64,000 bases of DNA from Enhygromyxa salina (GTDB lineage: Bacteria > Myxococcota_A > Polyangia > Nannocystales > Nannocystaceae). Position numbers and translations under genes: made by a program. Within the stretch, counting starts at the first letter, position 1. The number at the start of each line of letters is the position of its first letter. The stretch lies in assembly GCF_002994635.1 (NCBI RefSeq), contig NZ_PVNL01000139.1, positions 18,055 through 82,054 of the forward strand. Direction: 5' to 3'. Shown here one piece after another: positions 47,239 through 64,000 of the stretch. The notes under the pieces were generated by a model. The model saw only the letters and a program-made list of their open reading frames with translations. It ran no database searches and was not told the DNA's origin.

Positions 47239-47265
47239 GAGCGGGCCCCGGCGAGCGAGGGTCGC

Positions 47266-48607: not shown

Positions 48608-48844
48608 GGGTCCTCCAGTCTGGACTCGGGGACTGTCTTGTTCGGGGGGCGATCGAAGCCCCCACGCTCGACTCACCGGCCAACCTCGACTCACCGGCGA
48701 ACGAAGTCGACCTGCGCTCAATACACCTCGATGGGCGGCGCGAAGTTGGCCTGCTCCGTGCGGACGCGCACGGCCTCGCTGCGCTCAGCACCGACCACCG
48801 CCGGAAGCCCAAGCTAGCGCCGCCATTGGCTACGATGTCGATCG

Positions 48845-49996
48845 ATGAGCCGGCTGGTCTTCCACAGCATGTACCCGGACATGAAGCTGCCGGTGTCCGG
48901 AGAGCAGGTCCTGGGTCCGACCACGCTGCCCAAGCGGGCGCGCTCGTTCTGCAAGCCGATGACCGACGAGGTCCGCTCCGGCGTCTATCTTCACGCGCCG
49001 ATCGAGTTCGAATTTCGCCACAACCGCCAGACCATGTGGCTGCGGACCACGGTCGGCGATCTCCGTCACACGTCGATCCGCCACTTCGGCGTCACGGCCC
49101 GCGCCGACCTGCTGGTCAGCGATCTGTTCCCCGAGCGCTCGCGCGAGCTCCAGGCCAGGTTCCGCGCGGTCGCGATGGGCGCGGAGTTCCCCGACGATCT
49201 CACCGACGACCCCTGCTACCGCATCAATGACCGGCTGCTATCGGCGATCTCCGAGCCCGACGCTCCCGGCGGGATGGTCATCGTCTGGCTGGGCGGGACG
49301 CTCTACACCGAGGGCGACGACAAGCTGCTGATCAAGGGCGTGCCCAACCTCTACCAGCGCAACCGCTACGAGGTCCTCGACGCGATCATCGAGAGCTCGC
49401 GCTGGCACGGCTGGGTCGGCGCCGTGATCCGCAGCTACGACGAGAACACGTGGATCCCAGTCTCGGCCGCCGAGCCGTTCACCAAGGCGATGATCCTCGG
49501 CCCACGAACCGAGCTCGAGATCGTCCCCTTCGATCAGCTGCAGCGCGAGGTGCTCGTCGATCCGCTGCGCTGGAGCGACTTCGACGCGACCTACGCCCGG
49601 CCGCCGGGCAAGTACCTGCGGGACCTTCGACAGGGCGGAAGCTGGGACACCGAGTGGAAGAGCAAGCTCGACCTGCGCCCGCCCGCGCGGCTACCCTCGC
49701 CGCAGCTCGGCGCCCCCTCGACGCGGATCGCCGACGAGACCGAGCTGAGCTTCTTCGAGACGCGGCTGCGGCTGGTCGAGGATCTGCGCGCCGCGGACCG
49801 AGCGATCGAGATCCACCACAACGGCCGAGTCGCGCGCTTTGGTGGCGCCGACGCGTGCGAAGTCGTCGACGAGCTGTGCGCGTGGCCGCGGCTGTCGGCG
49901 GCCGAGCTGGCGACCCGGACCCCGTTCGAGATCGGCGAGCTGCGCGAGTTCTTGCAGCGCCTGGTCGAGGCCAGCGTCCTCAACCCTGTCGCGTGA
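48845..49996 (+). CDS. hypothetical protein
   Basis: 383-aa ORF with plausible composition. Convergent with the JmjC gene. Confidence 0.4.
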   Translation: MSRLVFHSMYPDMKLPVSGEQVLGPTTLPKRARSFCKPMTDEVRSGVYLHAPIEFEFRHNRQTMWLRTTVGDLRHTSIRHFGVTARADLLVSDLFPERSRELQARFRAVAMGAEFPDDLTDDPCYRINDRLLSAISEPDAPGGMVIVWLGGTLYTEGDDKLLIKGVPNLYQRNRYEVLDAIIESSRWHGWVGAVIRSYDENTWIPVSAAEPFTKAMILGPRTELEIVPFDQLQREVLVDPLRWSDFDATYARPPGKYLRDLRQGGSWDTEWKSKLDLRPPARLPSPQLGAPSTRIADETELSFFETRLRLVEDLRAADRAIEIHHNGRVARFGGADACEVVDELCAWPRLSAAELATRTPFEIGELREFLQRLVEASVLNPVA

Positions 49997-51353
49997 TCCG
50001 CAGCAGGCCATGCTCGACCATGACCCGCAGCAACGGCTCGACATCGGTCCAGGCGAAGCGCTCGTCTGCGTCGGTCCACGCGAGGGCGTCGGCGGCGACG
50101 AAGCGCTCGCGGGCGAGCAGCTCGCGGACCAGAGGTAGGGCCGCGACGGGCAGCGACAGCGACTTGGCCCCGGCGTGGAGCTCGATCGTGGGCGCGCGCT
50201 CGCGAGCCGGGCGCAGTCGGATCGGACAGCGACGATCAACCTCGAGCAGCTCGTCGCGCATGAGCTCGGGCACGGCGCCACGCGGTTGCGGCGGTTGGGG
50301 TGACGCGCAGGTCGAGGCCGACCACAGCTGCGTCAGCGTGTCCTCGTGGCGGTCCGGATCGGCGAGCAGCTCGGCGAGCGCCCCGAGTCGCCCGCGCATG
50401 TAGGCCCACAGCTCGTCGGTGGTCGTCACCCCTGCCCCCGCGGGCACCAACGGCGGCGGCCGACGCCACTCGAGCTCGCTACGCAGCTCACGCTCGAGCC
50501 ACACGTGCAGGAGATCGAGCACGCTGCGATCCTCGAGGAACAGGTTGAGCGCCAGCGAGTATCCGTGCGCCTCCGCGCGGTGCCAGGTCCCGGGCGGGAG
50601 GCACAGGAGGTCCCCAGGCTCGAGCGTGACCGACACGAACGCGCGCTCGTCGGGCGCCGCGGGTTGCTCCCACGCCTCCGGGGTCCGGCCGTGAGCGCGG
50701 CGCAACACCCGGACGCCGTCGCCGTCGATGTTGCAGTTGGCCCGCGGGTGCTCGACCGCCGGCGCTCGCCCGTACCGCCAGGTCTTGCTGCCCTCGAGCT
50801 GGATCGAGATCGCCGCGCGGGCGTCGAAGTGAGTCCCGAACCCGCAGCCATCGTGCGACAGGTAGCAGTTGACGCCGACGACCCCGGTGTAGCCGAGCTG
50901 CGCCCGGGTCACCCGCGCGAGCTCGGCCAGCTGGGCGTCGCGTCGCTCGACCCGGCTGACGCAGATCGTGGCGCCCGCGTCGAGGATCGGACCAATCGCC
51001 TCGTGGTTGACGCGAACCATCGGGATCGAGCGAGGCTCGGCGGCGCGATCGAAGCTCGCCTCGATCAGCAGCCCTTCGTCGGCGGCCGCGGCCTCGCGAT
51101 CGGCGAGCAGCGCGGCGCGCAAGTCCTCGAGCGAGAACAACCCCTCGACCTTGGCCGCCGCGCCGGGGATGTGTAGCGGCGCCCGGCCAAAGGCGCGGGC
51201 GAAGTCCTCGAGGCCGACGGGCTCGATCAACCGCGCGAACGCGTCCGGTCCGATCTCGCGGCGCATCGTCGAACGCGGCGCCGGGGTCGACGCGCCGCGC
51301 TCGCTGGCGAGCGCAGCGAACAGGGCCGAGAAGTCGATCGCTCGCGTGCGCAT
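49980..51353 (-). CDS. JmjC/cupin_4 family Fe(II)/2OG oxygenase-like protein
   Basis: Starts MRTRAIDFS (TGATG overlap with the upstream stop). Facial triad context GFGTHFDARAAISIQLEGSKTWRY ... PPGTWHRAEA. Confidence 0.7.
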   Translation of the reverse strand: MRTRAIDFSALFAALASERGASTPAPRSTMRREIGPDAFARLIEPVGLEDFARAFGRAPLHIPGAAAKVEGLFSLEDLRAALLADREAAAADEGLLIEASFDRAAEPRSIPMVRVNHEAIGPILDAGATICVSRVERRDAQLAELARVTRAQLGYTGVVGVNCYLSHDGCGFGTHFDARAAISIQLEGSKTWRYGRAPAVEHPRANCNIDGDGVRVLRRAHGRTPEAWEQPAAPDERAFVSVTLEPGDLLCLPPGTWHRAEAHGYSLALNLFLEDRSVLDLLHVWLERELRSELEWRRPPPLVPAGAGVTTTDELWAYMRGRLGALAELLADPDRHEDTLTQLWSASTCASPQPPQPRGAVPELMRDELLEVDRRCPIRLRPARERAPTIELHAGAKSLSLPVAALPLVRELLARERFVAADALAWTDADERFAWTDVEPLLRVMVEHGLLRITRQG

Positions 51354-52075
51354 CAGTCGACCGCCGCGAGCGGATCGGGGTTGGGGTGCTCGAGCCAGCC
51401 CCGCTCGGGCCGTGACCAGCCCCGCTCGGCGCCGCCGAGGGGCTTCGCCGCCAGCGCTGGCGTGGTGAACAGGCCCGTCCACGAGATGCGTTCGGCGCCG
51501 CTGCGGTTGGGCATCACGCAGTGCTCGACCCACGAGGGAAACAGCGCGAGGTCTCCGGCGGCCGGCTGGAGCTCAAACCACCTGGGCACGCTAAACGGCT
51601 CGAGGTCGAGCACGCACTCGCGCTCGACCCGGGTCAGGTAGGCGTCGGGGTTCTCGACCCGAAACCCGCCCGAACCCGGAGGCGCCTGAGCGTAGTAGGT
51701 CCCGCTGAAGGTCGAGCCCCCGTGGCCCCAGTGCTCGTGGGTGTGCGTCGCGCAGCCGGGCCCGCTGATGTTGACCCACAGCCCCACGTGCTCCCACGGG
51801 TGCGCCTGTGCTCGCCACCCGACTCGCGCCCACAGCGCTTCGATCGCGAGGTCGAACGCCGAGCGGAGGTCGGCGTAGTCCGGGGCGCGGTGCAGCTCGT
51901 CCTGGCTGTGCCAGGTGCTCTCGCCCTGGTAGTTGCGCCCTCGCGGATCGGCCCGACGTTCGGCCTCGGCCTGGGCCACGAGCGCCGCCGTGAGCGGCTC
52001 GTGCCCGTGCATGCGGACCAAGAAGCAGGGGATGCCGAAGGTGTCGAGTTCGATCAGCTCGGGGCGCAGGGACAT
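51353..52075 (-). CDS. putative 2OG-Fe(II) oxygenase-like protein (TIGR02466/PF13759-like)
   Basis: Starts MSLRPELIELD. Motif HTHEHWGHGGSTFSGTYYAQ resembles the HxH...SGVYY of that family. Confidence 0.4.
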   Translation of the reverse strand: MSLRPELIELDTFGIPCFLVRMHGHEPLTAALVAQAEAERRADPRGRNYQGESTWHSQDELHRAPDYADLRSAFDLAIEALWARVGWRAQAHPWEHVGLWVNISGPGCATHTHEHWGHGGSTFSGTYYAQAPPGSGGFRVENPDAYLTRVERECVLDLEPFSVPRWFELQPAAGDLALFPSWVEHCVMPNRSGAERISWTGLFTTPALAAKPLGGAERGWSRPERGWLEHPNPDPLAAVD

Positions 52076-52080
52076 GACGT

Positions 52081-53334
52081 TCACCGGCTTGCAGACGACG
52101 GGGACGCGACGACCTCGAGGATCTCGGCGGTCCACAGCACGCGCAAGATCGCACACAGCTCGCTGTCGCTGCGATCCAAGAAGCGCGCTCGCAGCTGCGC
52201 GAGGTCGAAGGCCGAGGCGCGCGCGCCGATCCAAGCGAGGACCTCGCGCGGGGCCGAGGACGAGGCGCGGATCGACAGCAGCACCGCGTCCTGCTCGTAG
52301 ACGACGAGCGTCACCCCGTCCCCGTCGTCGCGCCACTCGAAGCGAACGCCCGGGCGGAGCTCGAAGGCCGCGACGTCGGCGAGCAGCCCGGCGTCGCGGC
52401 CGAGCCCGCCGAGTAGGAGATCGATCGGCCGCAGCCCGGCGAGCTCGGCCTCGAGCGAGCGACGGTGGGCCGCGAGCTCGGCGAGCAGCGTCGCGCTGGT
52501 CAGTGACCCGGTCTCAATCGGTGCGCGCAGCTGCGGCTGCTCGAGCGACACGCGCTCGACGATCGCGCGCAGCAGCCCGCCCCAGGTCGGCGCCTCGAGC
52601 ATGATGTCGAGGTGGACCGAGTCGCTCAGCGGCGTCGTCGTGTGCCAGTAGCCCCGCGGCAAGAACAGGACCGATCCGGGCTCGAGCACCACGCTGTCGA
52701 GCGCCTCTGGCTCCCGCGCGTGGTCGAACAGCAAGACCTGCTCGAGGCTCGGGCTGGCGCCACCGAAGTGGTTGAAGGGCGGGTTCGGCACACAGGTGTT
52801 GGGCGCGTACTGCCAGCGCTTGCGGCCCGCGAGCTGCACGACCAGGCCCTCGCTGTTGTCCCAGTGCAGCGGCGGGGTGTGGGGCGAGCCCTCGCGGACC
52901 GCGAACAGGTTGCACGCGACCCGGGTCCGGGCGATCCCAAGCTCGTCGGCGAGGCGGCGGAGCGTCGTGGTCAGGCGCGGGAACCCGACGACCTTTTCGA
53001 GGTAGAGCTGCATCCCGGCCTGATACAGGGACAGCGCGCCGCTGACCTGGCGCTCGCTCAGCCGCCGCCCGCCGCCAACGCGCTCGGGGGTGAACGTGAC
53101 CTCGTCGCGGCCGAGCTGCAGGCGCGCGAGCTCGGCCTCGCCTGTGGTCAGCGCCGCGCTCGGGTCGACGAGCTGCTCGAGCTCGAACAGCGCGGCCCAG
53201 TCCGCGAGCGCGCCTTCGGCCACGAACGGACGGCCCGGCCAGTGCTCGCGCACGAAGCTCTCGCTGCGCGTGGGCGAGCCCAGCAGGGCCCCGAGGATCG
53301 ATGGCGGATCGAGCGCTTCGGCCATGGCGAGCAC
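52081..53334 (-). CDS. JmjC/cupin_4 family oxygenase-like protein
   Basis: PPLHWDNSEGLVVQLAGRKRWQY ... LPRGYWHTTT. Confidence 0.7.
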   Translation of the reverse strand: MLAMAEALDPPSILGALLGSPTRSESFVREHWPGRPFVAEGALADWAALFELEQLVDPSAALTTGEAELARLQLGRDEVTFTPERVGGGRRLSERQVSGALSLYQAGMQLYLEKVVGFPRLTTTLRRLADELGIARTRVACNLFAVREGSPHTPPLHWDNSEGLVVQLAGRKRWQYAPNTCVPNPPFNHFGGASPSLEQVLLFDHAREPEALDSVVLEPGSVLFLPRGYWHTTTPLSDSVHLDIMLEAPTWGGLLRAIVERVSLEQPQLRAPIETGSLTSATLLAELAAHRRSLEAELAGLRPIDLLLGGLGRDAGLLADVAAFELRPGVRFEWRDDGDGVTLVVYEQDAVLLSIRASSSAPREVLAWIGARASAFDLAQLRARFLDRSDSELCAILRVLWTAEILEVVASPSSASR

Positions 53335-53337
53335 CGG

Positions 53338-55650
53338 TCAGGGGGGCATCCGCCCGAGGCGGAGATCAGCGATTGTGAACGGTTCGCCGGCGCGACCGAG
53401 GCGCGCGCGGTAGTCGAGCACCCGATCCGGGACGTGGACTGGATGCGGGAGCGCGTCGAACATGCCCGTGACGACGACGCTGACCACGTGGACGCCGAGC
53501 TCCGGCGGCACCGGATAGGCGAACGCGCAGGCCTGCGTGCGCGGGCTGGCGGCGAGGATCCGCTGGACCACGACGTCGATGCAGCGGTCGATCGTGTCCC
53601 CGGGCGCGGCCGCGTCGGGCAGCGAGCTGGGGAGCTCGGCGAGCCTGCATGACCCCTCGATCCGCCCCCAGACCCGCGCGCGGTGCTCGTAGCTGTTGAG
53701 CACGCTCCCGCGGCTGCGGAGCGGGTCGCCGCGGTCGACGATCGCGTCGTAGCACAGGCCCTGGAACGCCTCGGTCAAGGCGCGACGCAGGGCGAGCACC
53801 GGCGAGAGGTGACAGCCGAGCCCGGTCGCCCAGTAGTTCACGTGGTCGTCGCGCGCACGCACGGCGGCCTCGACCACAGGGACACCGATGTCGTTGGTCA
53901 GGTCGCGCAGCTGGATCTCGTAGCCAGCCGCGTCGAGGGCCTCGATCACGGCGCGCGCGTGGACGTCGTCGACGCTGTCGAGCTCGACGGCGGCGAAGCC
54001 CAGCCCGGTCGCCGCCGCGGCGAAGCTCGCGTCGTGCTCGACGACCTCGAGCAACCCCTCGAGCACGGCCTCGTTCCAGGCGGTGCCGGCGGCGATGCCC
54101 GACGAACCACGCTCGGGCAGCACGAATTCGCTGCCGGCGAAGTCCGCACGCGCGAGCCCGTGGGCGCTGGCGGCGGGCAGCCAGAGCGGCCGGCGAGCAG
54201 CGAGGTCCGCGAGGTCGACGGCCTCGACCCAGTCGAGCATCGCGTCGGCCGGCCGGGGCACGCGGCCGCGCGGCTGGACCTGCGGCACCTGACCCGCGCA
54301 AAAAAAGTCGAGATCGAGGGTCGGAACGCCAAGCGCGTCAGCGGGCCCGCGGATGAGATCGAGGGGACCCACGCGACGGGCGAAGGTCTCCTCGAACCAC
54401 TCGTAGACCGCCGAGCACCACGCCTGGGCGGCGCTCAGGCCCTTGCCGAGCCCGCGCGCCTCATCGCCCGAGCACAGCCTGGGGTCACGGCGAAAGGGCA
54501 GCGTCGCGGAGACCTTCACGAACTCGATCTCCGCGAGCGCCGGGTGGCGGGCGATCAAGTCCGCCGGCCCGCGGGCGTGACGAATGTCGAGCTCGGCTCC
54601 GAGCTTGGCCAGCGCGCGCTCGCCGAGCGCTCGCGCGACGCTCGGCGGGACGCTGCGCAGGCCCGTGAGGACATCGACGACCTCTATCGAGCGCGAGCCT
54701 CCGTCGCGCTCGGGCTCGCTGGTGGTCGCCGTGGTCGAGCCTGCGATCGTCGAGATCGTGCGGACGAGCCCGCGACAGTGGGGGCAGCGGGTCATCGGTC
54801 CGATCGGTTGCCGACGCACGCGCCCGCCCCGGTCGACGACCGTCAGCGCCGTCGCGGGCTCCGGCGCGCGGTCGTCTGCGTAGGCGTCGAGGGCCGCCGC
54901 GATCGCGCCGACGAGGGTCAGGCGCTGGGCGAGCGCCCCCTCGACGGCCCCATCGACGGGCCAGACCGGGAGCGTGAGCTGGTCGAGCACGCCCACGGCC
55001 TCATGTGGTCGCTCGGGGAAGTAGTAGCGAGCCAGCCCGCACATCAGGCAGGGGGTGCGCGCGGGGATCATCAGCGGGCCGAGCACGACCTCGTCACCGG
55101 TACAGCTGACGAACAGCGCCTCGCGATCGGCAGCCAGCAGCGCGTCGGTCAGCGCGAGGGCGTCGCGCAGCGGACAACCGTCGAGGACCACCAGGCTCAG
55201 CTCCGGGCAATCTCCAGCGCGAACGGGCAACGCGAACTCCGTGGTCTCGCGCACGAGCCTGAGGTGGGCGCCGAGGTCCGCGAACAGCTCCGCGCCGAGC
55301 CGGCCCGAGCGGACCCCCGCGACCCGCAGCGATCCCAGCCCCGGCGAGCTCCTTGGCCGCTCGTTCGCGAGCCGGTCGACTAGCCGGTCGAGCACCACCT
55401 CGACGTCGCCCCGCTCGTAGCGGTGGGCCAGCGCCTCGACGGCGGCGTCTCGCGAGCCCGCGCTGTTCAGCGCGGCGAGCAGCTCGATGACGACCTCGGC
55501 GGGCATCCCCTCGATCTGGTGGAGGCGGCCGCCAGCGTGGAGCAGCACGCGACCAGCGTCGTCGGCCAGGACTTCGGCGAACTCGGGCGCGAGCGTCTGC
55601 AACGGCGCGCTCACCCGTCCCCCGATCGCGGCGCCGACAGGATCGGCCAC
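53338..55650 (-). CDS. fused cyclodehydratase: N-terminal E1/ThiF-like domain with CxxC pairs, plus C-terminal YcaO domain
   Basis: YcaO signature SSGIAAGTAWNEAVLEGLLEVVEHDA (compare SNGLAAGNTLEEAILQGLLELVERDA). N-terminal CLMCGLARYYF and CPHCRG zinc-ribbon-like pairs. 770 aa. Confidence 0.8.
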   Translation of the reverse strand: MADPVGAAIGGRVSAPLQTLAPEFAEVLADDAGRVLLHAGGRLHQIEGMPAEVVIELLAALNSAGSRDAAVEALAHRYERGDVEVVLDRLVDRLANERPRSSPGLGSLRVAGVRSGRLGAELFADLGAHLRLVRETTEFALPVRAGDCPELSLVVLDGCPLRDALALTDALLAADREALFVSCTGDEVVLGPLMIPARTPCLMCGLARYYFPERPHEAVGVLDQLTLPVWPVDGAVEGALAQRLTLVGAIAAALDAYADDRAPEPATALTVVDRGGRVRRQPIGPMTRCPHCRGLVRTISTIAGSTTATTSEPERDGGSRSIEVVDVLTGLRSVPPSVARALGERALAKLGAELDIRHARGPADLIARHPALAEIEFVKVSATLPFRRDPRLCSGDEARGLGKGLSAAQAWCSAVYEWFEETFARRVGPLDLIRGPADALGVPTLDLDFFCAGQVPQVQPRGRVPRPADAMLDWVEAVDLADLAARRPLWLPAASAHGLARADFAGSEFVLPERGSSGIAAGTAWNEAVLEGLLEVVEHDASFAAAATGLGFAAVELDSVDDVHARAVIEALDAAGYEIQLRDLTNDIGVPVVEAAVRARDDHVNYWATGLGCHLSPVLALRRALTEAFQGLCYDAIVDRGDPLRSRGSVLNSYEHRARVWGRIEGSCRLAELPSSLPDAAAPGDTIDRCIDVVVQRILAASPRTQACAFAYPVPPELGVHVVSVVVTGMFDALPHPVHVPDRVLDYRARLGRAGEPFTIADLRLGRMPP

Positions 55651-56759
55651 GGCGGCTCGGGCGTCGCCGCCGGATCCAGCCCACCGAGGCCGAACTCACC
55701 GACGATCGGCTCGCTGAGCGGATCGACGCCGGTGAGCCCGGCGAGCAGCTCGGTCTCAAACCCACCGCCGTAGGCACACGGGGCCAGGCCCAGCGCCGTC
55801 GCTACCAGATAGAAATACGCGTAGAGGCAGCCGACATCCTTGAGCTGGCTGACGTAGGCGATGTGATCGTACTTGTAGGCGACCCGCGCGATCCGGCTGG
55901 TCACGAGCAACACGATCAGCGGCAGCTTGGCGCCGCCCTTTGCGGCCGAGACCGAGGCACCGCGCTCGACGAGCTCGGCGATCAGCGAGGCCTCGGCCCG
56001 GAGGGGCTCGAGCGCGTGGCGCTGGGGGCAGTAGTGATAGACGTCGGGCGCGAGCCCCTCGACCGCGGCCGGTGACACGACCGGATAGATCTCGTGAGCG
56101 TAGAGCCCGCCCGCCGAGGGGTAGAGGCGGTGCTGGAGGACGCGACCGTCGTCGAGCTCGCGCGCGTCCCAGCTGCGCGCCGTCCAGTGAAAGAACTCGC
56201 CGAGCTGGTCCAGGCTGATGGTCGCGGTCGGCGGACTGAACGACCGGCGGCGCACCAGCACCTGCCAAAAATCGACGGCCGCGGGCTCGGGCTCCGGGAG
56301 CGCGATCGCCGTCGCGCTCATCGGTGGCTTGGCGTGCGGCTCGGAGCGCGTCAGGCCCTCGAAGCGATAGCGCGCGAGGGTCTGGGGCCGACACTCGCGA
56401 CTGTGTCGCTGCAGCGCGAGCTCGGGCGCGGCCCAGTAGCTCGACGGATCGAGGGCGCCGTCGACATCGGGCGGCCGTGACTCCTGCTCGGGTCGGACCA
56501 GGATCCCCGCCGCCTTCAGCGTCCGACAGGCCGCGATCACGTCGACCCCGAGCTCACGCGCGCCGCCGCTCGCCTCGACCTGTGCGGGGCTCGTGGGCAC
56601 GCGAAACCAATGCAGCACTTGCACGAGCGCGGCGTCGTCACAGACCAGCGCCTTGCCCGTGCGAAGGTTGCGGACGACCAGCTCACCCACCTCCCATGTC
56701 ACCGTGGTGAAGCGAGAGATCCGCAGCGGCTCGGTCGGATCAAGTTCCATCTCGCTCAT
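55611..56759 (-). CDS. SagB/McbC-type FMN-dependent dehydrogenase (nitroreductase fold)
   Basis: Starts MSEMELDPTEPL in an ATGA overlap with the upstream stop. YPSAGGLYAHEIYPVV matches the SagB-type dehydrogenase signature. Confidence 0.65.
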   Translation of the reverse strand: MSEMELDPTEPLRISRFTTVTWEVGELVVRNLRTGKALVCDDAALVQVLHWFRVPTSPAQVEASGGARELGVDVIAACRTLKAAGILVRPEQESRPPDVDGALDPSSYWAAPELALQRHSRECRPQTLARYRFEGLTRSEPHAKPPMSATAIALPEPEPAAVDFWQVLVRRRSFSPPTATISLDQLGEFFHWTARSWDARELDDGRVLQHRLYPSAGGLYAHEIYPVVSPAAVEGLAPDVYHYCPQRHALEPLRAEASLIAELVERGASVSAAKGGAKLPLIVLLVTSRIARVAYKYDHIAYVSQLKDVGCLYAYFYLVATALGLAPCAYGGGFETELLAGLTGVDPLSEPIVGEFGLGGLDPAATPEPPWPILSAPRSGDG

Positions 56760-57598
56760 TCGGGCAGCCCGAGCTCGGCGGCCTTGGGGTAGACCTCGCG
56801 CCGATAGCTGGGTTTGTTGGCGAACGCGAAGGGGACCGACATGAAGGTGCCGAGCGACAGGCGCAGTTGCTCTCGACGGCTCGGCGCTGGCACCACCGCG
56901 CGACTGATCGCCGAGTGGAACTGCCAGCCGGGGTACACGACCGTCCGATTGCAGCGTTGGCGCACGAGAGCCAGCCGCTCCCACGCGTCGGCAGCAACCT
57001 CGCCGCCGACCCGCTGCCGCCAGATCTCCGCCTGCAGCTGCTGAAGGTCGGGTCGCGGCAAGGCCTCGATCGCGGCCGGCAGCTGCGCGAGGAACTCCAA
57101 CCCGAGCAGCTCCTGCAACCACAGCAGCTCGACCGGATCCTTGTCGCTCATCCAGCAGGTGAGCCCGGTCGCTCGGTGGCGCCAAAACGCTGTGCCCTCG
57201 TCATCGTGGTCGGTGTCTGACAGGTAGGTGACCGCCGCCAACCACACGTCGTGATCCGCGTGCTGATCAATCAGATCTGAAGGACGCTCGCGCAGCCCGA
57301 GCGCCGACGCGTAGAAGTCCGCAGCGATCACGTCGAGGTCGATCGCCTTCGGGTAGCCCTCGGGCCACAGCTGGTCGAGGATCACCCGCGCGAGCAGCTC
57401 GACGAACGCCCGCCCCCCTATCGGAGACACGCGCGCGCGCAACCCGGGGTAGCCCGAGTCCGGGATCGCGTAGCCCTGCTCGAGCGCGGCCTCGCGGACC
57501 TGCTCGATATCGACGAAGGTGTCGTCGATGACGGCGATCACGGACCCCGCTAGGCGGAGGACTTCGACGCGACGCTGAGAATTAAGCTCGAGCCTCAT
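56756..57598 (-). CDS. hypothetical protein in RiPP-like operon (ATG at 57598 proposed; the ORF track begins at a TTG at 57610)
   Basis: Translationally coupled to the SagB-like gene. Its start codon lies in the 3' arm of a 12-bp hairpin. Confidence 0.4.
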   Translation of the reverse strand: MRLELNSQRRVEVLRLAGSVIAVIDDTFVDIEQVREAALEQGYAIPDSGYPGLRARVSPIGGRAFVELLARVILDQLWPEGYPKAIDLDVIAADFYASALGLRERPSDLIDQHADHDVWLAAVTYLSDTDHDDEGTAFWRHRATGLTCWMSDKDPVELLWLQELLGLEFLAQLPAAIEALPRPDLQQLQAEIWRQRVGGEVAADAWERLALVRQRCNRTVVYPGWQFHSAISRAVVPAPSRREQLRLSLGTFMSVPFAFANKPSYRREVYPKAAELGLPE

Positions 57599-57628
57599 CC
57601 GAATACCCAATGGATTGGATGAGGCTCG
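57589..57628 (-). promoter_or_regulatory. perfect 12-bp stem hairpin between the precursor and downstream genes, sequestering the downstream ATG
   Basis: cgagcctcatcc-(16 nt)-ggatgaggctcg. The ATG of the next gene is inside the stem. Confidence 0.35.
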
Positions 57629-57718
57629 TCAGCCTAGGCCGAGCACCAGCGCGAGAGCCCGTGGGAGCACCCATTCGGCTCATTTGGTTCCCCGGCGGCG
57701 CAGCCCTCGGCAAATTGC

Positions 57719-57874
57719 CTAGCGGTCGACGCCCACGGAGCCGTGGTTGCCGGAGCGCGACCAGCCGGCCTCGACCTTGCCGCCCTTGATCTTCTCCGTG
57801 GTCTCGCGATCGAGCTCGCGGATCTCGAGGTCTTTGATGTTCAGCTTGCGTTTGGGCTTGTTCTCGTCTGTCAT
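57719..57874 (-). CDS. candidate RiPP precursor peptide (51 aa): Lys-rich leader, GG motif, short Gly/Ser-rich core
   Basis: MTDENKPKRKLNIKDLEIRELDRETTEKIKGGKVEAGWSRSGNHGSVGVDR. AGAGGGAAC ribosome-binding site 7 nt upstream. AT-rich codon use against the GC-rich background. Located between the YcaO/SagB/JmjC genes. Confidence 0.6.
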   Translation of the reverse strand: MTDENKPKRKLNIKDLEIRELDRETTEKIKGGKVEAGWSRSGNHGSVGVDR

Positions 57875-57969
57875 TTTCGTTCCCTCTATTCTCGTGCTGC
57901 TATCTGGGCAACTTCGACCTCCGCAGGCTACTCGACCGCCAAACTTGCGCGCAAGGGTTTTCGCTCGCC

Positions 57970-59154
57970 TCAGGCCTCGCCTCGGACCCGCTGGAGAACC
58001 CCAGCCGCGGACAGGGCCGCGAACAAGTCCTCGAGCCAGGGCCAGAGCGAATCGGGGCAGTCCCAGAGCAGCGCACCGACCGGGGCCGGGCCTGACGACT
58101 GGGTCTGTGTCAGGCGCTCGAGCAAGCGATCGAACCACGGCAACTCCTCAATGGAGGCACCGATTGAATAGCTCATATGATCGCCGCAACTACGGATGTG
58201 GAAACGACCATCCGAGTCTACGCTCAATGTTACGTCTTCGTGAAGTGCCCACGACCCCGCCAACGTGTCGGGGAACGGCCCATATACCAGTTGGTCCACC
58301 GAGAGACAAGTGATCAGTTGTGTGATCGTTGGGCCGAGGGCGCGGAGATCGGCGAGCGAAGCGTGCGCAAGGTTCGCAAAGGACAGCTCTCGCAATCGCG
58401 GGTCGCGAACGATCTCCCACTCGATCAGCGACGAGAGCCGGGCGGCCAAGCTCGCCGGGCTGATCACGAACACGAGCGCGAGGCTGCGCGCCGAGCTGAC
58501 CTGCGTGGTGTGCCACAGGCCGCGCGGGAGCCACAGGGACTGGCCAGCGGCTACGGTCTCGACGGCGTCAAACGGACCGAGCGTGGGGCTCGGCTCGACC
58601 TGGGGATCCCGCGCGGTCCCGTCGGGTCGCCGCGCGAACCGCTGCCAGACAGGGTCGCGCCACTCGATCACGTTGGTGTTCGTCGGCGGGTGGATCTGCC
58701 AGCGCTTCTCGCCGTGCAGCTGCACGTTGAGACCGCAGTCGCGATCAAAGTGTAGATGTGCCCCGGAGCCTCGCGCACCCGCGAAGATCTCGACTCGCGA
58801 CGCCGAGGGCATGAAGTCCCCAACGGCCTCGCGGACGCGGTTGAGATAGCGCCCGAGCGCGGGAATGACTCGATGACATTCGTGGAAATACAGCGTCGCG
58901 CCAGCGCGGTGGGCGGCGAGGGCGGCCCGCGGCTCGAGCTTTTGTGCGCCCCGCATCCGCTGGCCGTCGGTGTGCCACACGGACACGCGCGCAGCGGGAG
59001 CTTGGCGCTCGAACAACGCACACACGGCCTCGACGTCGGGCAGCAGCACGACGAGCTCGGCGAACATGGGGTCGTCGTGGCAGTCGGCGCGGACGACCTG
59101 TGTCGGCCAGTCCGGGGCGGCGGGATCGACCCCGAACACGGCGCGAGTGCTCAT
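57970..59154 (-). CDS. JmjC/cupin_4 family oxygenase-like protein
   Basis: Starts MSTRAVFG (ATGA overlap). AHLHFDRDCGLNVQLHGEKRWQI ... LPRGLWHTTQ. Confidence 0.7.
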   Translation of the reverse strand: MSTRAVFGVDPAAPDWPTQVVRADCHDDPMFAELVVLLPDVEAVCALFERQAPAARVSVWHTDGQRMRGAQKLEPRAALAAHRAGATLYFHECHRVIPALGRYLNRVREAVGDFMPSASRVEIFAGARGSGAHLHFDRDCGLNVQLHGEKRWQIHPPTNTNVIEWRDPVWQRFARRPDGTARDPQVEPSPTLGPFDAVETVAAGQSLWLPRGLWHTTQVSSARSLALVFVISPASLAARLSSLIEWEIVRDPRLRELSFANLAHASLADLRALGPTITQLITCLSVDQLVYGPFPDTLAGSWALHEDVTLSVDSDGRFHIRSCGDHMSYSIGASIEELPWFDRLLERLTQTQSSGPAPVGALLWDCPDSLWPWLEDLFAALSAAGVLQRVRGEA

Positions 59155-60065
59155 CGCAGCGATCCGAGGTAGTCGCGCTCGAAGATCGCCAGGACCGCGG
59201 CGCGCTGCGGCGCCGACAGCTGACGCAGGTACGCCTCGTCCCCAAACGCATACTCGATGCTCCGCCACGTCGCCGCCAGCGCGGGCGCCCGCTGCTTGAG
59301 CGTGAGGCTGAGCGAGGCCTCGACGCTCTCGACCCAGTGCCAGATCGGGTTGGGCATGAACAGCGCCTGCCCGGGCTCGAGCTCGACCTCCCAGCAGTGC
59401 GAGCCCGCGAAGTTGGGATACTGCTCGAGGTCGACGCCCGGGAGATCGATGACCTGGGAGCTGCGCGTGCGCCAGTCAGTGACCGGGAAGGGGTAGAGAT
59501 CGGCGGTGATCGGCGCGAGCACGACCCGCTTGCGACCCTGGAGCTGGACCAGGAAGCCCGGGGTCTGGTCGTAGTGCAGCGTCGTGATCGCGCCGGCTTG
59601 CGACAGCCAAGCGCCCTGATCTTCGCAGCCGTCCATTGGCGCGGGCAGTGATCCGAGCTGAGCGCGGAGCTCGGCGTGGACCCGACCGCAATACCAATAG
59701 ACGACCTCACCGGGCGCGACGAGGGGCGGGCGCGCGCCCGGGTTGGTGATCCGGTCGATGATCTCGGGCAGCGGGAGCACGAACGAGTGGTAGCGACCCT
59801 CGGGCTGCGAGCGCTCCGACGGCGCGCGGTGGGGATCGAGGCGTGCGTCGTTGAGGTACAAGAAGGCGCCGCTCGGGCTGACCCAGCACTCTTCTCGCCA
59901 GTCACGCAGCCAGGCCTCGAGGTGGGTGAATTCCAGCGCCACGTTGTCGCGGCGCGAGACCTCTACCACGTAGGGCTCGCCGGCGACGGCGAACGCTTCG
60001 TGTCGCTCGCCAGCTTGCTCGACGTCGAGGATCGAGACCGCGCGGGTTTCACCAAACGCTCGCAT
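59151..60065 (-). CDS. JmjC/cupin_8-like hydroxylase
   Basis: Starts MRAFGETRAV. TLHYDQTPGFLVQLQGRKRVVL ... MPNPIWHWVES. Confidence 0.65.
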   Translation of the reverse strand: MRAFGETRAVSILDVEQAGERHEAFAVAGEPYVVEVSRRDNVALEFTHLEAWLRDWREECWVSPSGAFLYLNDARLDPHRAPSERSQPEGRYHSFVLPLPEIIDRITNPGARPPLVAPGEVVYWYCGRVHAELRAQLGSLPAPMDGCEDQGAWLSQAGAITTLHYDQTPGFLVQLQGRKRVVLAPITADLYPFPVTDWRTRSSQVIDLPGVDLEQYPNFAGSHCWEVELEPGQALFMPNPIWHWVESVEASLSLTLKQRAPALAATWRSIEYAFGDEAYLRQLSAPQRAAVLAIFERDYLGSLR

Positions 60066-60166
60066 GCCAGCGATTCGAATGATCGAGCATCGAGTCGGCA
60101 GAGTCAAACTCGACGACGACGATCGCCGCTTCTCCGCTACTCTCGGTCGACTCTCGCCGTCGGCAC

Positions 60167-61945
60167 ATGCTCGATCCCACCTTACAAGTCTGCTCCATTG
60201 ACGGGGTCTGCTACCTCGTCTTCGACGATCGCGTGCTCGTCGTCGAAGGGGTATCGGCTGACGCGCTGCGGCGAGCGCTACGACGACCCGAAGCCGAGCT
60301 CGACACCGACCTGCGAGCGGTGCTCGAGGTGTCGGCCGAGCAGCACGCCGAGGGCAGCGCACCCTGGGCTGGGGCTTGGGTTGGGACTCGCCGCGGGCCC
60401 GTGCTCGCCGCTCGCGTCACCGTGCTCGGTGACGGACGGCTCGCCCGCTGCGTGGCTGACGAGCTCACCCGCGCGGGCGCTCGGGTGCTGACCAGGCCCG
60501 ACGCGGGGCCCGAAGCAGCGGGCCTCGAGCTCGACGTCGACCTGGTGTTTTGCTGCCTCGAGGGCGCGTCGTACGAGCGCCTGCTCGCGCTCGAGCGGGC
60601 GGCCGCCCGCGCGACCTCGCCACTGGTGTTCATCACCGTCGGCGCCCAGGCGCTGAGCTTCGGCCCACGCGTTGGTGCTCGCTCGCGCGGGTGCCTGGCG
60701 TGCAGTCGCGGCGCGCTGCTGCCGATCCCCGCGCAGCTCGCCCAGAAGCTGCTTTCGCAGCTGCACACCCACACCCTCGACGACGGCGCCGCCGCGCAGA
60801 TGGTCGCCTGCGCCGCTGCGGCGCTCGCCGTGCGCGAGCTCGAGGGCCGGGCCCGCGAGTCCGACGAGACCGTCGTCGAGCTCGCGTGGACGGGTGAGCG
60901 CCAGCGTCACCACATCGCCTGCAGCTGCCACCCGACCCGCGCGGCGACCGATCCAACGACTCACACCGCACCCACCCGGTGCGCGACCGTCGAGCCGAGC
61001 CTGGCCTGGGCCGAACTCTCGCCGCGGCTGCAGGCGCTCGAGCTCGCGCTCGCGGGCCCCGATGACCGAGATCCGCTCGAGCTCCTCGACCCGGACGTGC
61101 CCGCGATGCTGCGCGAGCTCGTCGTCCGCCACGCCGACGATCTCGACCACGCGACTGGAAGCTTCCGCGCCCACCTCGAGGGCACCTGGCGCGCGCTCGT
61201 TGGATGGCGACAGCCGCGGATCGTCTGTCGCGCGGGCCTGTTTCACAGCTGCCTCGCGACCAGCTACTACGAGCGCGCGCTCTACCGCCCGTGGGAGCAG
61301 CGCGCCCTCGCCCGCGCCATCGGCCCCGAGGCGACGACGCTGGTCCACTTGTTCTGCACGATCGACCGCCCCGCCCTCCACGACGAGCTCGACGCGGTCG
61401 ACGAGCTGCCCGCTGCCGCCACGCCAGTTCGCAACCGCCACACGGGCGAGCGGGCGTTCGTCCCGGCCCGAGTCGTCGCCGCGCTGCTGCTGATCGAGAT
61501 CGCCAACGTCGCCGAGCAGTCCGGGGGCGACGACGGCATGCCGAGCGCGTGGATGGCCCGGGCCTCGCGCTGGACTCAATTGGCGACGCCGTGGCTCAGC
61601 CCCGCGCTGCCGATCTTCGATCGCGGCACGGCGCGGTTGTCCGAGACCGACGAGCGCGCGGCGATCGAGGCCTACCACGTAGCGATCGAAGTCCTCGAGC
61701 GTGACGCCGACGCGGCCCAGTCCGCGCTGACTCGCTGCGCCGCGCACAACCCCTGGGTCGCCGAGCCGTGGCTGCTCCAGGCCCTGCTCGCCGAGCGCCG
61801 CGCTGACCTGAGCGCGCGCACGCAGCTGCTCGACGCCGCCGAGTCGCGGCTCGCGAGCTGGCCGCTCGCGTGGGACAAGCGTTACCCCGGGACCCAGTGG
61901 CGGGCGCTGGCCCACGCGCTGCGGCGAGGTCCTACTCGGTCGTGA
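60167..61945 (+). CDS. putative RRE (PqqD-like) + E1/ThiF-like Rossmann domain protein with C-terminal helical domain
   Basis: N-terminus SIDGVCYLVFDDRVLVVEGVSADALRRAL is RRE-like. VTVLGDGRLARCVADELTRAGARV matches a Rossmann fold. CLACS. Confidence 0.45.
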   Translation: MLDPTLQVCSIDGVCYLVFDDRVLVVEGVSADALRRALRRPEAELDTDLRAVLEVSAEQHAEGSAPWAGAWVGTRRGPVLAARVTVLGDGRLARCVADELTRAGARVLTRPDAGPEAAGLELDVDLVFCCLEGASYERLLALERAAARATSPLVFITVGAQALSFGPRVGARSRGCLACSRGALLPIPAQLAQKLLSQLHTHTLDDGAAAQMVACAAAALAVRELEGRARESDETVVELAWTGERQRHHIACSCHPTRAATDPTTHTAPTRCATVEPSLAWAELSPRLQALELALAGPDDRDPLELLDPDVPAMLRELVVRHADDLDHATGSFRAHLEGTWRALVGWRQPRIVCRAGLFHSCLATSYYERALYRPWEQRALARAIGPEATTLVHLFCTIDRPALHDELDAVDELPAAATPVRNRHTGERAFVPARVVAALLLIEIANVAEQSGGDDGMPSAWMARASRWTQLATPWLSPALPIFDRGTARLSETDERAAIEAYHVAIEVLERDADAAQSALTRCAAHNPWVAEPWLLQALLAERRADLSARTQLLDAAESRLASWPLAWDKRYPGTQWRALAHALRRGPTRS

Positions 61946-62783
61946 CGAACTCGGGGTGGACGAGATCGAGCCAGTCGCGGTGGTCCTCCTCGACCCACAG
62001 CCTCAGGCCCTTCTTGTTGAGCTGGCGACCGGGGATCTCGCGACCGAAATTCGACAGGCAGTAGCGACACGCCTGCAGCGGCTTGGACGAGCGCAGGTAG
62101 GCCTCGAGCTGCTCGCGCAGCTCCGGGTTGGCGTGGAGCGCGATCGAGTCGGCCTCGCGATTGTCGAACTCGACGCCACATCGACGCAGGCGCGGCTGCA
62201 TCCACGGCGCGGGCGAGCACTTATAGTAGCGCCCCGCGTAGACCGTGTGGCACGACCACTCGTGGGTCTGGGGGCAATTGTCGTAGATCATCTGTACGCT
62301 CGCGTCGTCCTCGATCGCGTGATTGAGCACCGTGACCCGCATGTTCGGTGTGTCCTTGACGAACAGCTCGAAGCCGTGGGCCTCGGCCCGGGCCTCCACC
62401 TGCGCCCGGCTCATTCGATACTTGACGCCCGGATACACGCTCCACCACAGCCGATCGATCGAGGCCCAAAACGGCTCCGGGACGCGGTCGAGCAGCACGC
62501 CATTGGTCACTACCGTCACGCACTCCGCGATCGGCGAGGCCTTGGCGGTGGCGATGAACTCGAGCAGGTCGGGGTGCAGCAGTGGCTCGCCACCGAGCAG
62601 CTTGAGCTCGTGGGTCCGCATGACCCCGGCGAGCGCGTCGAGATCGCGGCAGAAGCTGGCGTGGTCCAGGAACGCCTTGGCCATCAGCGGCGAGGCGTGA
62701 TCGCAGCCGTAGCAGCTGAGGTTGCAGTGCTCGGTGAGGTTGAACTCGACCGAGGCGACGCGGAGGAGGGGCGCTGAAGTCAT
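61932..62783 (-). CDS. radical SAM enzyme
   Basis: CNLSCYGC (CxxxCxxC) 4Fe-4S binding motif plus additional Cys (CRYC). Confidence 0.75.
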   Translation of the reverse strand: MTSAPLLRVASVEFNLTEHCNLSCYGCDHASPLMAKAFLDHASFCRDLDALAGVMRTHELKLLGGEPLLHPDLLEFIATAKASPIAECVTVVTNGVLLDRVPEPFWASIDRLWWSVYPGVKYRMSRAQVEARAEAHGFELFVKDTPNMRVTVLNHAIEDDASVQMIYDNCPQTHEWSCHTVYAGRYYKCSPAPWMQPRLRRCGVEFDNREADSIALHANPELREQLEAYLRSSKPLQACRYCLSNFGREIPGRQLNKKGLRLWVEEDHRDWLDLVHPEFVTTE

Positions 62784-62795
62784 GACGGCTCGCGC

Positions 62796-64000
62796 TCAGG
62801 CAGGGGGGTGAGGCTCTTCGTTGCGTCCGAGAAAGATCGTCGTGTCGACGCTGCCCTCGACGCTGGCGACGAGACCCGCGTGGCAGCATCGCTGGATGAC
62901 CCCGAGGGCGTCGACGCTGTCGTCGACGAGCTCCGCGAGCGCGGCGTCGAGCTCGGTCAAGCTCAGCTCGCGCCCAGCGAGCGCGGCGTAGAGCGCCGCG
63001 AATCCTTCACTGACCTGCTTGGCGCTGGCCTGACCGCGGATCCACAGCAGGCAGCCGGGCCCGACCGACGCGGGCAGCGGGTGGACCTCGTAGGCCTCGC
63101 GGGGATGAAAGCGCACCCGGGCGCTCGCGGGCACATCGCCCGCGAGGATCCGGCCGTACCAGCCGCCGAGCTGCCGACGACGGCGGATCTCGTCGTTGAG
63201 CTGGCCGTATCCGCGGGTCAGGCGAGCCCGGTCCTCGGCTCCGAAGCCCCCGGCCGCCGTGAACGCGACGGTGTTGACCTGCTGGTGGGAGGCCGAGTCG
63301 TTGTCGCTGGTCGGACTGCGGTCGTAGAGAATCGTGAGCCCGAAGCGCTCTGGCTCGCGGCCCATCTCGGACGAGCTCGTCAGCGTGAAGTACGAGACAT
63401 TGAAGTAGCTGACCACGTCGGTGTAGCGGCTACAGAACGCGAGCACCTCCTCGGCCTCGGCAAGCGTCGTCGTGGGGATGTCGATGATGACGTTGACCAC
63501 GAGCTGCAGGCGATCACCCGCGTCGAGCTCGCGCACGGTCGCAAAGAAGCGCTCGATGTCGGCGCGCCGATAGCCCTTGGCGATGTAGTCGAGCAGGCGA
63601 TCGTTGGCGCTCTCCATCCCGATCGTCAGCGCCCACCTGGCGCTGCGAGTCATCGTGCGCAGGACCTCGAGGGTAAAGCGCGCGTCGATGTAGGCGTAGC
63701 ACCAGATCGAGATGTCTTCGATCCCCCGCTCACCCAGCGCGGCGCCGAGCTCGGCCGCGTGGCGGGGCGGGAGCGCGTCGGTGATCAGGTCGAACTGGCG
63801 AAAGCCCCGGCTACGAAAGTACGCGAGGTCGTCTGCGACGTCATCGCTGCTGCGCGGGCGATAGCGCGGATCGTCGCTGAGGTTGATATAGTCGCAAAAC
63901 GTGCACTTTCCCCAGTAGCAGCCCTTGCTGTGCAGGACCGAGAGCACCGTCGACTCACGCTGGTCGGCGGGCAGCTCGTAGCGAAAGTGGTCCTCCTTGC
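62796..64000 (-). CDS. B12-binding radical SAM enzyme (class B-like), N-terminus beyond the right edge
   Basis: CYWGKCTFCDY radical SAM motif. The reading frame stays open upstream through the window end. The M shown in the ORF track is an internal GTG. Confidence 0.7.
   Translation of the reverse strand, partial: KEDHFRYELPADQRESTVLSVLHSKGCYWGKCTFCDYINLSDDPRYRPRSSDDVADDLAYFRSRGFRQFDLITDALPPRHAAELGAALGERGIEDISIWCYAYIDARFTLEVLRTMTRSARWALTIGMESANDRLLDYIAKGYRRADIERFFATVRELDAGDRLQLVVNVIIDIPTTTLAEAEEVLAFCSRYTDVVSYFNVSYFTLTSSSEMGREPERFGLTILYDRSPTSDNDSASHQQVNTVAFTAAGGFGAEDRARLTRGYGQLNDEIRRRRQLGGWYGRILAGDVPASARVRFHPREAYEVHPLPASVGPGCLLWIRGQASAKQVSEGFAALYAALAGRELSLTELDAALAELVDDSVDALGVIQRCCHAGLVASVEGSVDTTIFLGRNEEPHPPA

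Follow-up and report, generated by a model that had tools for sequence, protein, structure and literature searches.

Gene organization of the locus

The DNA analysed was a 64,000-nucleotide (nt) stretch of the genome of the myxobacterium Enhygromyxa salina (assembly GCF_002994635.1, contig NZ_PVNL01000139.1, positions 18,055 to 82,054), hereafter the window. The system in question was a candidate cluster for a peptide made by the ribosome and modified after its translation (RiPP) at window positions 49980-64000. The region was GC-rich (64-73% per 2-kb bin), and true reading frames were chosen by third-position GC content (GC3). Families were assigned with Pfam and NCBIfam profiles against curated cut-offs, and most assignments were above the cut-off (Table 1).

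Nine genes lay on the minus strand in the same orientation, mostly overlapping, from 60065 down to 49980. They encoded four JmjC proteins, one oxygenase of family TIGR02466, a DUF6445 protein, an E1-like/YcaO fusion, a SagB-type dehydrogenase and a precursor of 51 amino acids (aa). Stop and start codons overlapped as ATGA at the JmjC4/JmjC3 and DUF6445/SagB junctions, and as TGATG between the TIGR02466 oxygenase and JmjC1. A GTGA overlap was possible at the SagB/YcaO junction, where an alternative YcaO GTG start at 55614 overlapped the SagB stop codon. The 100-bp divergent region upstream of JmjC4 contained a promoter match that agreed with the consensus at 9 of 12 positions (1 found vs. 0.3 expected). 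The two radical S-adenosylmethionine (SAM) genes formed a second minus-strand block, separate from the nine-gene run.

A sequence-only reading of the window had described co-oriented, coupled genes around a 51-aa open reading frame (ORF) with a strong ribosome-binding site. It had assigned to them a YcaO/SagB pair of the thiazole/oxazole-modified microcin (TOMM) type, four JmjC proteins with the HxD...H triad, a further 2-oxoglutarate (2OG) oxygenase-like protein, an RRE/E1-like protein and two radical SAM enzymes, one with a B12 motif. Every family call was upheld by the Pfam and NCBIfam profile hidden Markov models, the YcaO (PF02624), SagB (TIGR03605) and TIGR02466 matches all being above cut-off and the four JmjC proteins matching JmjC_2 or Cupin_8. 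Common orientation held for the nine minus-strand genes but not for the E1-like gene (60167-61945), which was on the plus strand. A minus-strand ORF at 60278-61915 was rejected as a gene, the plus-strand ORF having the GC3 signal, a Pfam match and a conserved ortholog. Both radical SAM assignments stood, but the B12-binding domain lay outside the window. Continuation of the cluster past the window edge was shown by a contig of strain DSM 15201 (L002), which was collinear with the window at 94-96% nucleotide identity.

Table 1. Position, strand and basis of assignment of the features discussed, in window coordinates.
Feature	Position	Strand	Basis or description
JmjC4 (304 aa)	59151-60065	-	Cupin_8 73.7 bits
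JmjC3 (394 aa)	57970-59154	-	JmjC_2 29.9 bits; group D; C-terminal extension
Precursor (51 aa)	57719-57874	-	Sequence and ribosome-binding site
Intergenic structured RNA	57585-57718	-	Fold computation
DUF6445 protein	56756-57598 (ATG, 280 aa) or to 57610 (TTG, 284 aa)	-	PF20043 62 bits
SagB-type flavin mononucleotide (FMN) dehydrogenase, N-terminal extension	55611-56759	-	TIGR03605 132.5 bits (cut-off 78.4)
E1-like/YcaO fusion (770 aa)	53338-55650	-	PF02624 153.9 bits (cut-off 25.7); TIGR03882 42.4 bits (cut-off 36.9)
JmjC2	52081-53334	-	JmjC_2/Cupin_8; group B
2OG-FeII_Oxy_5 oxygenase (240 aa)	51353-52075	-	TIGR02466 81.2 bits (cut-off 62.5); PF13759 64.9 bits
JmjC1 (457 aa)	49980-51353	-	JmjC_2 55.8 bits; group A; C-terminal extension
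Sigma-70-like promoter match	60079-60107	-	TTGACT-17-GATCAT, consensus match alone
E1-like + DUF6817 protein (592 aa)	60167-61945	+	PF20680 66.7 bits; GC3 0.87
Small radical SAM protein (283 aa)	61932-62783	-	PF04055 32.9 bits (cut-off 29.5)
Large B12-type-like radical SAM protein, C-terminal 400 of 704 residues	62796-64000, runs off window	-	PF04055 32.9 bits
383-aa protein, family not assigned	48845-49996	+	GC3 0.91
Cys-rich ORF	47954-48721	-	
Graspetide precursor	47266-47502	-	Leader MSNNKTDKKQLKDLYIEDLGQVTGG, LYIEDL motif; four TTLAIGEED (TTxxxxEE) repeats
Graspetide ATP-grasp enzyme	46225-47238	-	TIGR04187 82.3 bits, below cut-off (350)
Graspetide HlyD	45254-46285	-	
Graspetide C39-ABC transporter	43077-45257	-	
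Graspetide HlyD	42169-43113	-	
Major Vault Protein homolog (1079 aa)	30003-33242	+	Major Vault Protein shoulder 93.4 bits; Vault_3 repeats
Cytochrome P450 fusion (759 aa)	21461-23740	+	

Predicted azole-forming enzymes and leader-binding domains

The TOMM leader-binding E1-like segment of the YcaO fusion (TIGR03882) occupied residues 178-324. Columns S413, E417, E420, E535, E538 and D540 of the YcaO protein were invariant across relatives in the alignment and are presumably the nucleotide- and Mg-binding residues. The nearest solved structures included the E1-like/YcaO fused heterocyclases TruD, LynD and MusD, and the best match by E-value was the M. jannaschii YcaO MJ1094 (6pe3; 1.9e-14). The SagB protein was nearest to the SagB-type dehydrogenase domain protein 8pz5 and to CyaGox (5lq4; both ~2e-32), and matched McbC at 5.5e-6. 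Its Lys-Tyr motif (KYD) was aligned and kept in all three of the JmjC-linked clusters described below; the Lys-Tyr motif of TOMM dehydrogenases is catalytic. Judged by these sequence features, the two enzymes make up an intact LynD/ThcOx-type pair for azole formation.

Formation of a backbone amidine or thioamide by the YcaO, with the SagB homolog in another role, was considered very unlikely. The YcaO fell below the SagD cut-off, its best structure was MJ1094, NCBIfam TIGR03266 provides a link to thioamidation, and the precursor cores were poor in Ser and Thr. However, the Pfam scan of the cluster, including its DSM 15201 extension, found no TfuA or sulfur-delivery gene. Furthermore, SagB was conserved, translationally coupled and kept its Lys-Tyr in three clusters, and the E1-like/YcaO fusion was as in the azoline-forming LynD and TruD. 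Thioamidation was dropped because TfuA was not present and SagB was conserved.

Residues 1-280 of the 592-aa DUF6817 protein aligned with the E1-like part of YcaO fusions (hhalign 86.8%, E 4.3e-6, 257 columns), which supports the E1-like call made for this protein and marks its N-terminus as a TOMM docking-type domain. The YcaO of the window was 100% identical to an E. salina protein at NCBI. An ortholog of the DUF6817 protein, 90% identical, was present in DSM 15201, whose YcaO was 91% identical, and a contig scan with the DUF6817 protein found this sister strain alone. Leader-binding domains are predicted on several enzymes of the cluster.

JmjC proteins and other oxygenases

All four E. salina JmjC proteins kept the HxD...H triad, intact in the alignment, and the 2OG-binding Lys. 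Residues H135, D137, K150 and H215 (JmjC3 numbering) were invariant when the eight JmjC proteins of two clusters were aligned. The double-stranded beta-helix fold of JmjC proteins was found, with YxbC and three ribosomal oxygenases (NO66, MINA53 and YcfD) as fold neighbours at a sequence identity of ~20%. YxbC was the top structure match for JmjC1-3 (8.7e-11 for JmjC1, 6.7e-15 for JmjC3), and NO66 and MINA53 were also matched by JmjC1 and JmjC2. JmjC4, which is of the Cupin_8 type and had no C-terminal extension, matched JMJD5/FIH (~3e-14). A halogenase reading of the JmjC proteins was dropped because all carry HxD.

In the model of JmjC2, three strands (E330-336, E341-347, E350-357) were followed by three helices (H361-371, H378-384, H390-402; predicted local distance difference test, pLDDT, ~70-78), a topology that suggests a RiPP recognition element (RRE). 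JmjC-RRE fusions in RiPP-like contexts are mentioned in PMC12710340.

The DUF6445 protein conserved an HxD...H...R-x-S/T motif (R(L)S/T) and is probably an additional Fe/2OG oxygenase. The cluster apparently encodes five or six Fe/2OG oxygenases, seemingly active.

Contexts outside the family were recorded as well. A JmjC protein fused to SCP2, 33% identical to JmjC2, was encoded at 10001-11338 of locus L005 in another E. salina assembly (GCA_002994615.1, contig PVNK01000160). It lay in a nonribosomal peptide synthetase cluster with MbtH, HpaB, a B12-type radical SAM protein and a methyltransferase, and on this account JmjC oxygenases seem to have been recruited repeatedly to E. salina secondary metabolism. 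A JmjC homolog at L011 adjoined methionine sulfoxide reductase genes and L008 held a stand-alone DUF6445 gene, both in unrelated contexts.

Relatives, synteny and rarity

Two relatives of the cluster were found. The first was in a metagenome-assembled genome of Haliangium sp. (GCA_050303215.1, contig JBNLBH010000160; L003, with near-copy L004), in the order precursor, JmjC, sulfotransferase-like (opposite strand), DUF6445, SagB, JmjC, YcaO, JmjC, JmjC, multicopper oxidase. The second was a 13-kb metagenome contig of 56% GC (L006), in the order sulfotransferase-like, SagB, JmjC, YcaO, JmjC, JmjC, an opposite-strand gene, a 70-aa peptide, DUF6445, Cupin_8/JmjC. Common to E. salina and both relatives were the precursor, DUF6445, SagB, the E1-YcaO fusion and four JmjC genes, and the 4-nt stop/start overlaps were kept.

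Identity to the E. salina proteins (BLASTP; Haliangium and L006, respectively) was 45 and 39% for YcaO, 50 and 48% for SagB, and 49 and 32% for DUF6445. Group A of the JmjC proteins comprised E. salina JmjC1 and its full-length orthologs from the genes at Haliangium 11218 (30%) and L006 6721 (37%); group B comprised JmjC2, Haliangium 10001 and L006 5451. Group C was represented by Haliangium 6418 and L006 1937 and had no E. salina member, and group D, encoded beside the precursor, by JmjC3 and Haliangium 1831 (43%) with no L006 member. As far as L003 and L006 are visible, nothing in them clearly corresponded to JmjC4, the TIGR02466 oxygenase, the radical SAM genes or the DUF6817 protein, nor was a glycosyltransferase seen there. 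By sequence comparison the radical SAM, TIGR02466, JmjC4 and E1-like/DUF6817 genes seem to be accessory genes particular to the E. salina lineage, not family-defining components.

Genes for sulfotransferase-like proteins at L003 3025-4095 (minus strand) and L006 1-714 (minus strand) were 41% identical to each other, with a weak Sulfotransfer_3 match (E 0.0014), and no such gene was seen in the E. salina cluster as far as it is visible. Their presence hints at O-sulfation of hydroxyl groups in the Haliangium and L006 lineages.

The family was rare. A HMMER search with the YcaO over all 1.84 billion representative proteins gave 26 matches at E <= 1e-30, and besides the query's own only two representatives were more than 40% identical, those of Haliangium and L006. 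The next YcaO relatives (P0018, P0019 and P0020; 35-37% identity) had a SagB neighbour and no JmjC neighbour. Outside the three clusters the closest JmjC homologs amounted to 7 matches in 5.8 billion proteins. Word-indexed searches likewise returned few homologs, and two metagenome scans, with the DUF6445 and YcaO alignments, found no further family member. A Polyangium YcaO had an NHLP-type precursor and an amidohydrolase as neighbours, an unrelated context.

The synteny check on JmjC and YcaO genes that had been proposed from the window thus returned three independent lineages sharing JmjC genes with YcaO, SagB and a double-glycine peptide. The recurrence of this set in two other lineages, with four JmjC genes and overlapping stop and start codons, is more than chance. 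It also bears on the possibility that the JmjC proteins are housekeeping hydroxylases, for example of ribosomal proteins, lying beside a small YcaO/SagB cluster, with the 51-aa ORF not their substrate. YcfD, NO66 and MINA53 are among their neighbours in fold and sequence, and the distant JmjC homologs P0009 and P0010 were annotated as L16 Arg81 hydroxylase. However, groups A and B had members in all three lineages and groups C and D in two apiece, accompanied every time by the YcaO/SagB/DUF6445/precursor set and by overlapping codons. No ribosomal genes were nearby in any of the three clusters, and the closest outside homologs were few. On this comparative sequence evidence the housekeeping role is largely refuted by synteny, and it was held to be extremely improbable.

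Precursor peptides and downstream RNA

The E. salina precursor consisted of the leader MTDENKPKRKLNIKDLEIRELDRETTEKIKGG and the predicted 19-residue core KVEAGWSRSGNHGSVGVDR, joined at a double-glycine junction; its start was preceded by GAGGGA-N7-ATG, in keeping with the ribosome-binding site noticed earlier. Unmodified, the core has a calculated monoisotopic mass of 1996.983 Da. In DSM 15201 the core was identical, with 2 synonymous changes, and the 4 amino-acid changes were all in the leader. This pattern indicates that the core is under purifying selection between the two E. salina strains. The precursors of E. salina and Haliangium are labelled hypothetical protein at NCBI, and the L006 peptide has no name.

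The leader of the E. salina precursor ended in KLNIKDLEIRELDRETTEKIKGG. That of Haliangium, homologous to it, ended in RIKIKEIEIKELDPSEIEHAKGG and preceded the core LEYEWRRAQSGQTSSVVR, and the 70-aa L006 peptide had a different, longer leader ending in VVNGG before the core NAFTDWLGKGDWYFNGRG. The residues before the three cores were KGG, KGG and NGG. All three cores had 18-19 residues, with Trp at position 5 or 6 followed, two or three positions on, by a basic residue. Ser and Thr made up 3 of 19, 4 of 18 and 1 of 18 residues (E. salina, Haliangium and L006, respectively; a single Thr in L006), a number sufficient in each for at least one azole, and none of the three contained Cys.

The composition of the cores bears on two other accounts of the oxygenases. 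In the first, the JmjC and DUF6445 proteins would chiefly cross-link, macrocyclise or desaturate, and the product would be a constrained macrocycle, not a polyhydroxylated linear peptide. Five conserved oxygenases per 18-19-residue core exceed the usual need for decoration, and the cores pair Trp with Arg, Lys or His. However, the characterised close structural relatives are all hydroxylases (CzlI, BipG/PbsQ, YcfD, NO66, MINA53; PMC11575548, PMC12707348), and the HxD motif of all JmjC proteins excludes halogenation, which makes this account unlikely.

In the second, the oxygenases would feed the YcaO: the JmjC proteins would beta-hydroxylate residues other than Ser and Thr, such as the Trp at position 5-6, and YcaO and SagB would turn the products into 5-substituted oxazoles, such as an indolyl-oxazole. 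This agrees with the low Ser and Thr content of the cores, above all with the one Thr among the 18 residues of L006. It also agrees with the tight coupling of YcaO and SagB to JmjC genes in all three clusters and with a Trp at the same core position in three lineages. For the phenyloxazole of the curacozole/YM-216391 family, a route through beta-hydroxylation of Phe and subsequent cyclodehydration has been proposed. PMC11575548 describes a phenyloxazole moiety and calls the steps of its formation poorly understood. On the other side, ordinary azole formation suffices, since none of the cores lacks both Ser and Thr, and three cores are too few for confidence in Trp conservation. The known RiPP JmjC enzymes act on an aromatic ring (CzlI) or on the ornithine (Orn) side chain (BipG/PbsQ), and not on a C-beta supplied to a YcaO (PMC11575548, PMC12707348, PMC12257519). 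The account was judged decidedly unlikely.

Downstream of the precursor, the intergenic RNA folded at -67.8 kcal/mol (z = -2.6 vs. shuffles). A hairpin at 57590-57630 with an 11-bp stem (GAGCCUCAUCC...GGAUGAGGCUC) masked the DUF6445 start codon, and may act as an attenuator or stoichiometry control, which would fit a high precursor-to-enzyme ratio.

Radical SAM enzymes, export and cluster end

The small radical SAM protein had a CX3CX2C motif (CNLSCYGC) and a Cys-rich C-terminus, and its NCBIfam matches were all below cut-offs. The large one had CX4CX2C (CYWGKCTFC; window 63900-63950, minus strand), not the canonical CX3CX2C. Its full-length ortholog in DSM 15201 (L002:12618-14732, 704 aa) matched the B12-binding profile at 26.4 bits (cut-off 32.1), and its best family was the RiPP radical SAM C-methyltransferase TIGR03975 (61.8 bits; cut-off 281.85).

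Beyond the large radical SAM gene, DSM 15201 had a glycosyltransferase gene (plus strand) and genes for HlyD and a C39-peptidase ATP-binding cassette (ABC) transporter. The latter two lay at L002:16001-19523, ~2-5.7 kb past the window edge, and an aldehyde dehydrogenase gene likely marks the cluster border. From this gene order, the cluster probably runs ~5.7 kb beyond the window. The double-glycine leader and the C39-ABC transporter would together provide export with cleavage after Gly-Gly. The C39-ABC gene inside the window was rejected as the exporter of this cluster, since it is part of the graspetide cluster described below and the YcaO cluster has its own exporter past the edge.

The YcaO gene of DSM 15201 carried an in-frame insertion of ~234 bp (L002 ~3155-3387) that was absent from the window. 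The insertion was palindromic, with arms 92% complementary and the look of a miniature inverted-repeat transposable element or repetitive extragenic palindrome, and a related 47-bp piece was present at window 17297-17343.

Proposed pathway

The cluster is likely an uncharacterised RiPP pathway that leads to a peptide bearing azole and several hydroxyl groups, which is cut after Gly-Gly on export. Gene content, catalytic motifs, synteny and rarity are as observed above; the chemical steps, their order and the modified sites are proposed as follows. The enzymes would bind the leader of the 51-aa precursor (KLNIKDLEIRELD...KIKGG) through their fused peptide-binding domains. With ATP, the E1-like/YcaO protein would cyclodehydrate at least one of the three Ser residues in the core, and SagB would oxidise the oxazolines to oxazoles. 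The four JmjC proteins would oxidise side chains of the core, most likely by hydroxylation, the candidate sites being Trp, Arg/Lys, His, Asn and Asp; DUF6445 and, in E. salina, the TIGR02466 oxygenase probably oxidise core side chains likewise. As E. salina extras, the B12-type and small radical SAM enzymes would methylate or cross-link, and the glycosyltransferase would glycosylate. The C39-peptidase ABC transporter with HlyD would then cut after Gly-Gly and export the product.

Several observations weigh against this pathway. The YcaO scored 98.7 bits with the curated SagD family TIGR03604 (cut-off 219.25, not reached) and is therefore a divergent YcaO. The cores were not rich in Cys, Ser and Thr, unlike the typical core of a linear azol(in)e-containing peptide; from the overall scarcity of Ser and Thr and the single Thr of L006, azoles may form only to a limited extent or in a non-canonical way. 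The RRE assignment derives from modelled topology at the pLDDT given above, and no PqqD/RRE profile of Pfam or NCBIfam matched the JmjC proteins. When DUF6445 was compared with the TIGR02466 oxygenase by hhalign, the distal His/RxS motif alone was aligned (probability 5.9%); the AlphaFold2 model of DUF6445 had a pLDDT of 41, and a PDB sequence search with the protein gave no match. What ties the TIGR02466, radical SAM and glycosyltransferase genes to the peptide is position, as the related clusters lack them in their visible parts. Finally, the palindromic insertion in YcaO means that the pathway may be impaired in DSM 15201.

Comparison with known systems

The cyanobactin enzymes LynD/TruD/MusD and ThcOx/CyaGox offer the same ~770-residue E1-like/YcaO polypeptide with an adjoining SagB-type FMN oxidase. 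CyaGox was among the top structure matches, Lys-Tyr was kept, and the precursor is likewise divided into leader and core. Unlike cyanobactin clusters, the present one had no PatA/PatG-type proteases or macrocyclase, used a double-glycine leader with C39-ABC export, and had a core not rich in Cys, Ser and Thr. Its YcaO was distant (best structure 1.9e-14, SagD cut-off missed), and four JmjC genes and DUF6445 were integral to the operon.

CzlI, a YxbC-like JmjC protein (top structural homolog B. subtilis YxbC, 1VRB) of the YcaO/dehydrogenase curacozole pathway whose gene adjoins that of the precursor, hydroxylates precursor Phe18 to Tyr in a flank-dependent manner (PMC11575548). Similarly, JmjC3 adjoined the precursor in E. 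salina and Haliangium, and JmjC1-3 had YxbC as nearest structure; this likeness is by structure neighbour and description. The curacozole pathway has one, non-essential JmjC protein, whereas four, conserved and translationally coupled, were present here. Curacozole is also a Streptomyces product with another precursor type and export, in contrast to the myxobacterial origin of the present cluster.

BipG, BpmG and PbsQ are JmjC/cupin Orn hydroxylases of biphenomycin clusters with a B12 radical SAM enzyme (PMC12707348, PMC12257519). Those clusters resemble the present one in combining a JmjC hydroxylase, a B12-type radical SAM enzyme and other metalloenzymes. They differ in having a multinuclear non-haem iron oxidative enzyme (MNIO), an arginase, a TldD protease, no YcaO/SagB and one JmjC instead of four, and radical SAM genes were not conserved in the present family. 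The ribosomal oxygenases (E. coli YcfD/RoxA, human NO66 and MINA53) and YxbC share the fold with HxD...H and Lys, then a linker of helices and a small domain at the C-terminus, but the present JmjC proteins were encoded in a peptide operon, not stand-alone, and were ~20% identical to them.

In the published literature searched, no YcaO cluster with several JmjC genes was described. The sequence-only reading had matched the cluster to no described family, and the literature, with its single JmjC tailoring enzymes and none of this architecture, agrees. The E. salina genome paper names only a "thiopeptide" cluster, in strain SWB007 (PMC6226438). Single JmjC enzymes in RiPP pathways are already known, and a YcaO/SagB system with this large JmjC complement is, by the literature searched, unprecedented.

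Neighbouring genes and other features of the window

The 383-aa protein gene was convergent with JmjC1, with a 17-nt overlap. Its product had no match in Pfam or NCBIfam and no homolog in L003 or L006, and PDB sequence searches gave lone non-significant matches for the DUF6817 protein and for the 383-aa protein (E 0.035 and 0.022). Its membership of the cluster is uncertain; by eye only, its C-terminus looked RRE-like.

A separate plesiocin-like Group 2 graspetide cluster was found at 42169-47607, all on the minus strand. In plesiocin PsnA2 an LFIEDL leader comes with four cores of the form TTxxxxEE (bioRxiv 10.1101/2021.03.09.434688), and the neighbouring cluster is like it in leader motif, in its four repeats and in having the ATP-grasp gene next to the precursor. 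This pathway is separate from the YcaO cluster, with HlyD and a C39-ABC transporter of its own. The Cys-rich ORF, located between the two RiPP clusters, had repeats of C..GSSC.FEC.APPCHVDC, a lipoprotein-like signal and no Pfam match. Elsewhere in the window, the 1079-aa bacterial protein was homologous to the vault-particle protein of eukaryotes, and the 759-aa protein combined a cytochrome P450 with two cyclic-nucleotide-binding domains in one chain.

Implications

JmjC proteins are familiar chiefly as histone demethylases and as hydroxylases of ribosomal or hypoxia-pathway proteins; in peptide natural-product pathways they have been shown just singly, as tailoring enzymes, and not before 2024-2025. 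If the proposed pathway is true, the operon would give several leader-guided, site-selective C-H oxidation catalysts, and a new scaffold would be probable from marine myxobacteria, a poorly mined source. Being very rare (three lineages), the family would not surface in frequency-based genome mining. For DUF6445 and DUF6817, both Pfam families without an assigned function, the cluster also provides a first, testable prediction of function from context. As a long shot, it would be the founding example of a RiPP family that combines a battery of RRE-fused JmjC proteins and DUF6445 with YcaO/SagB, in the boldest form of which Trp would become an aryl-oxazole. Should beta-hydroxylation precede azole formation in this way, it would amount to a general enzymatic route to aryl-oxazole peptides.

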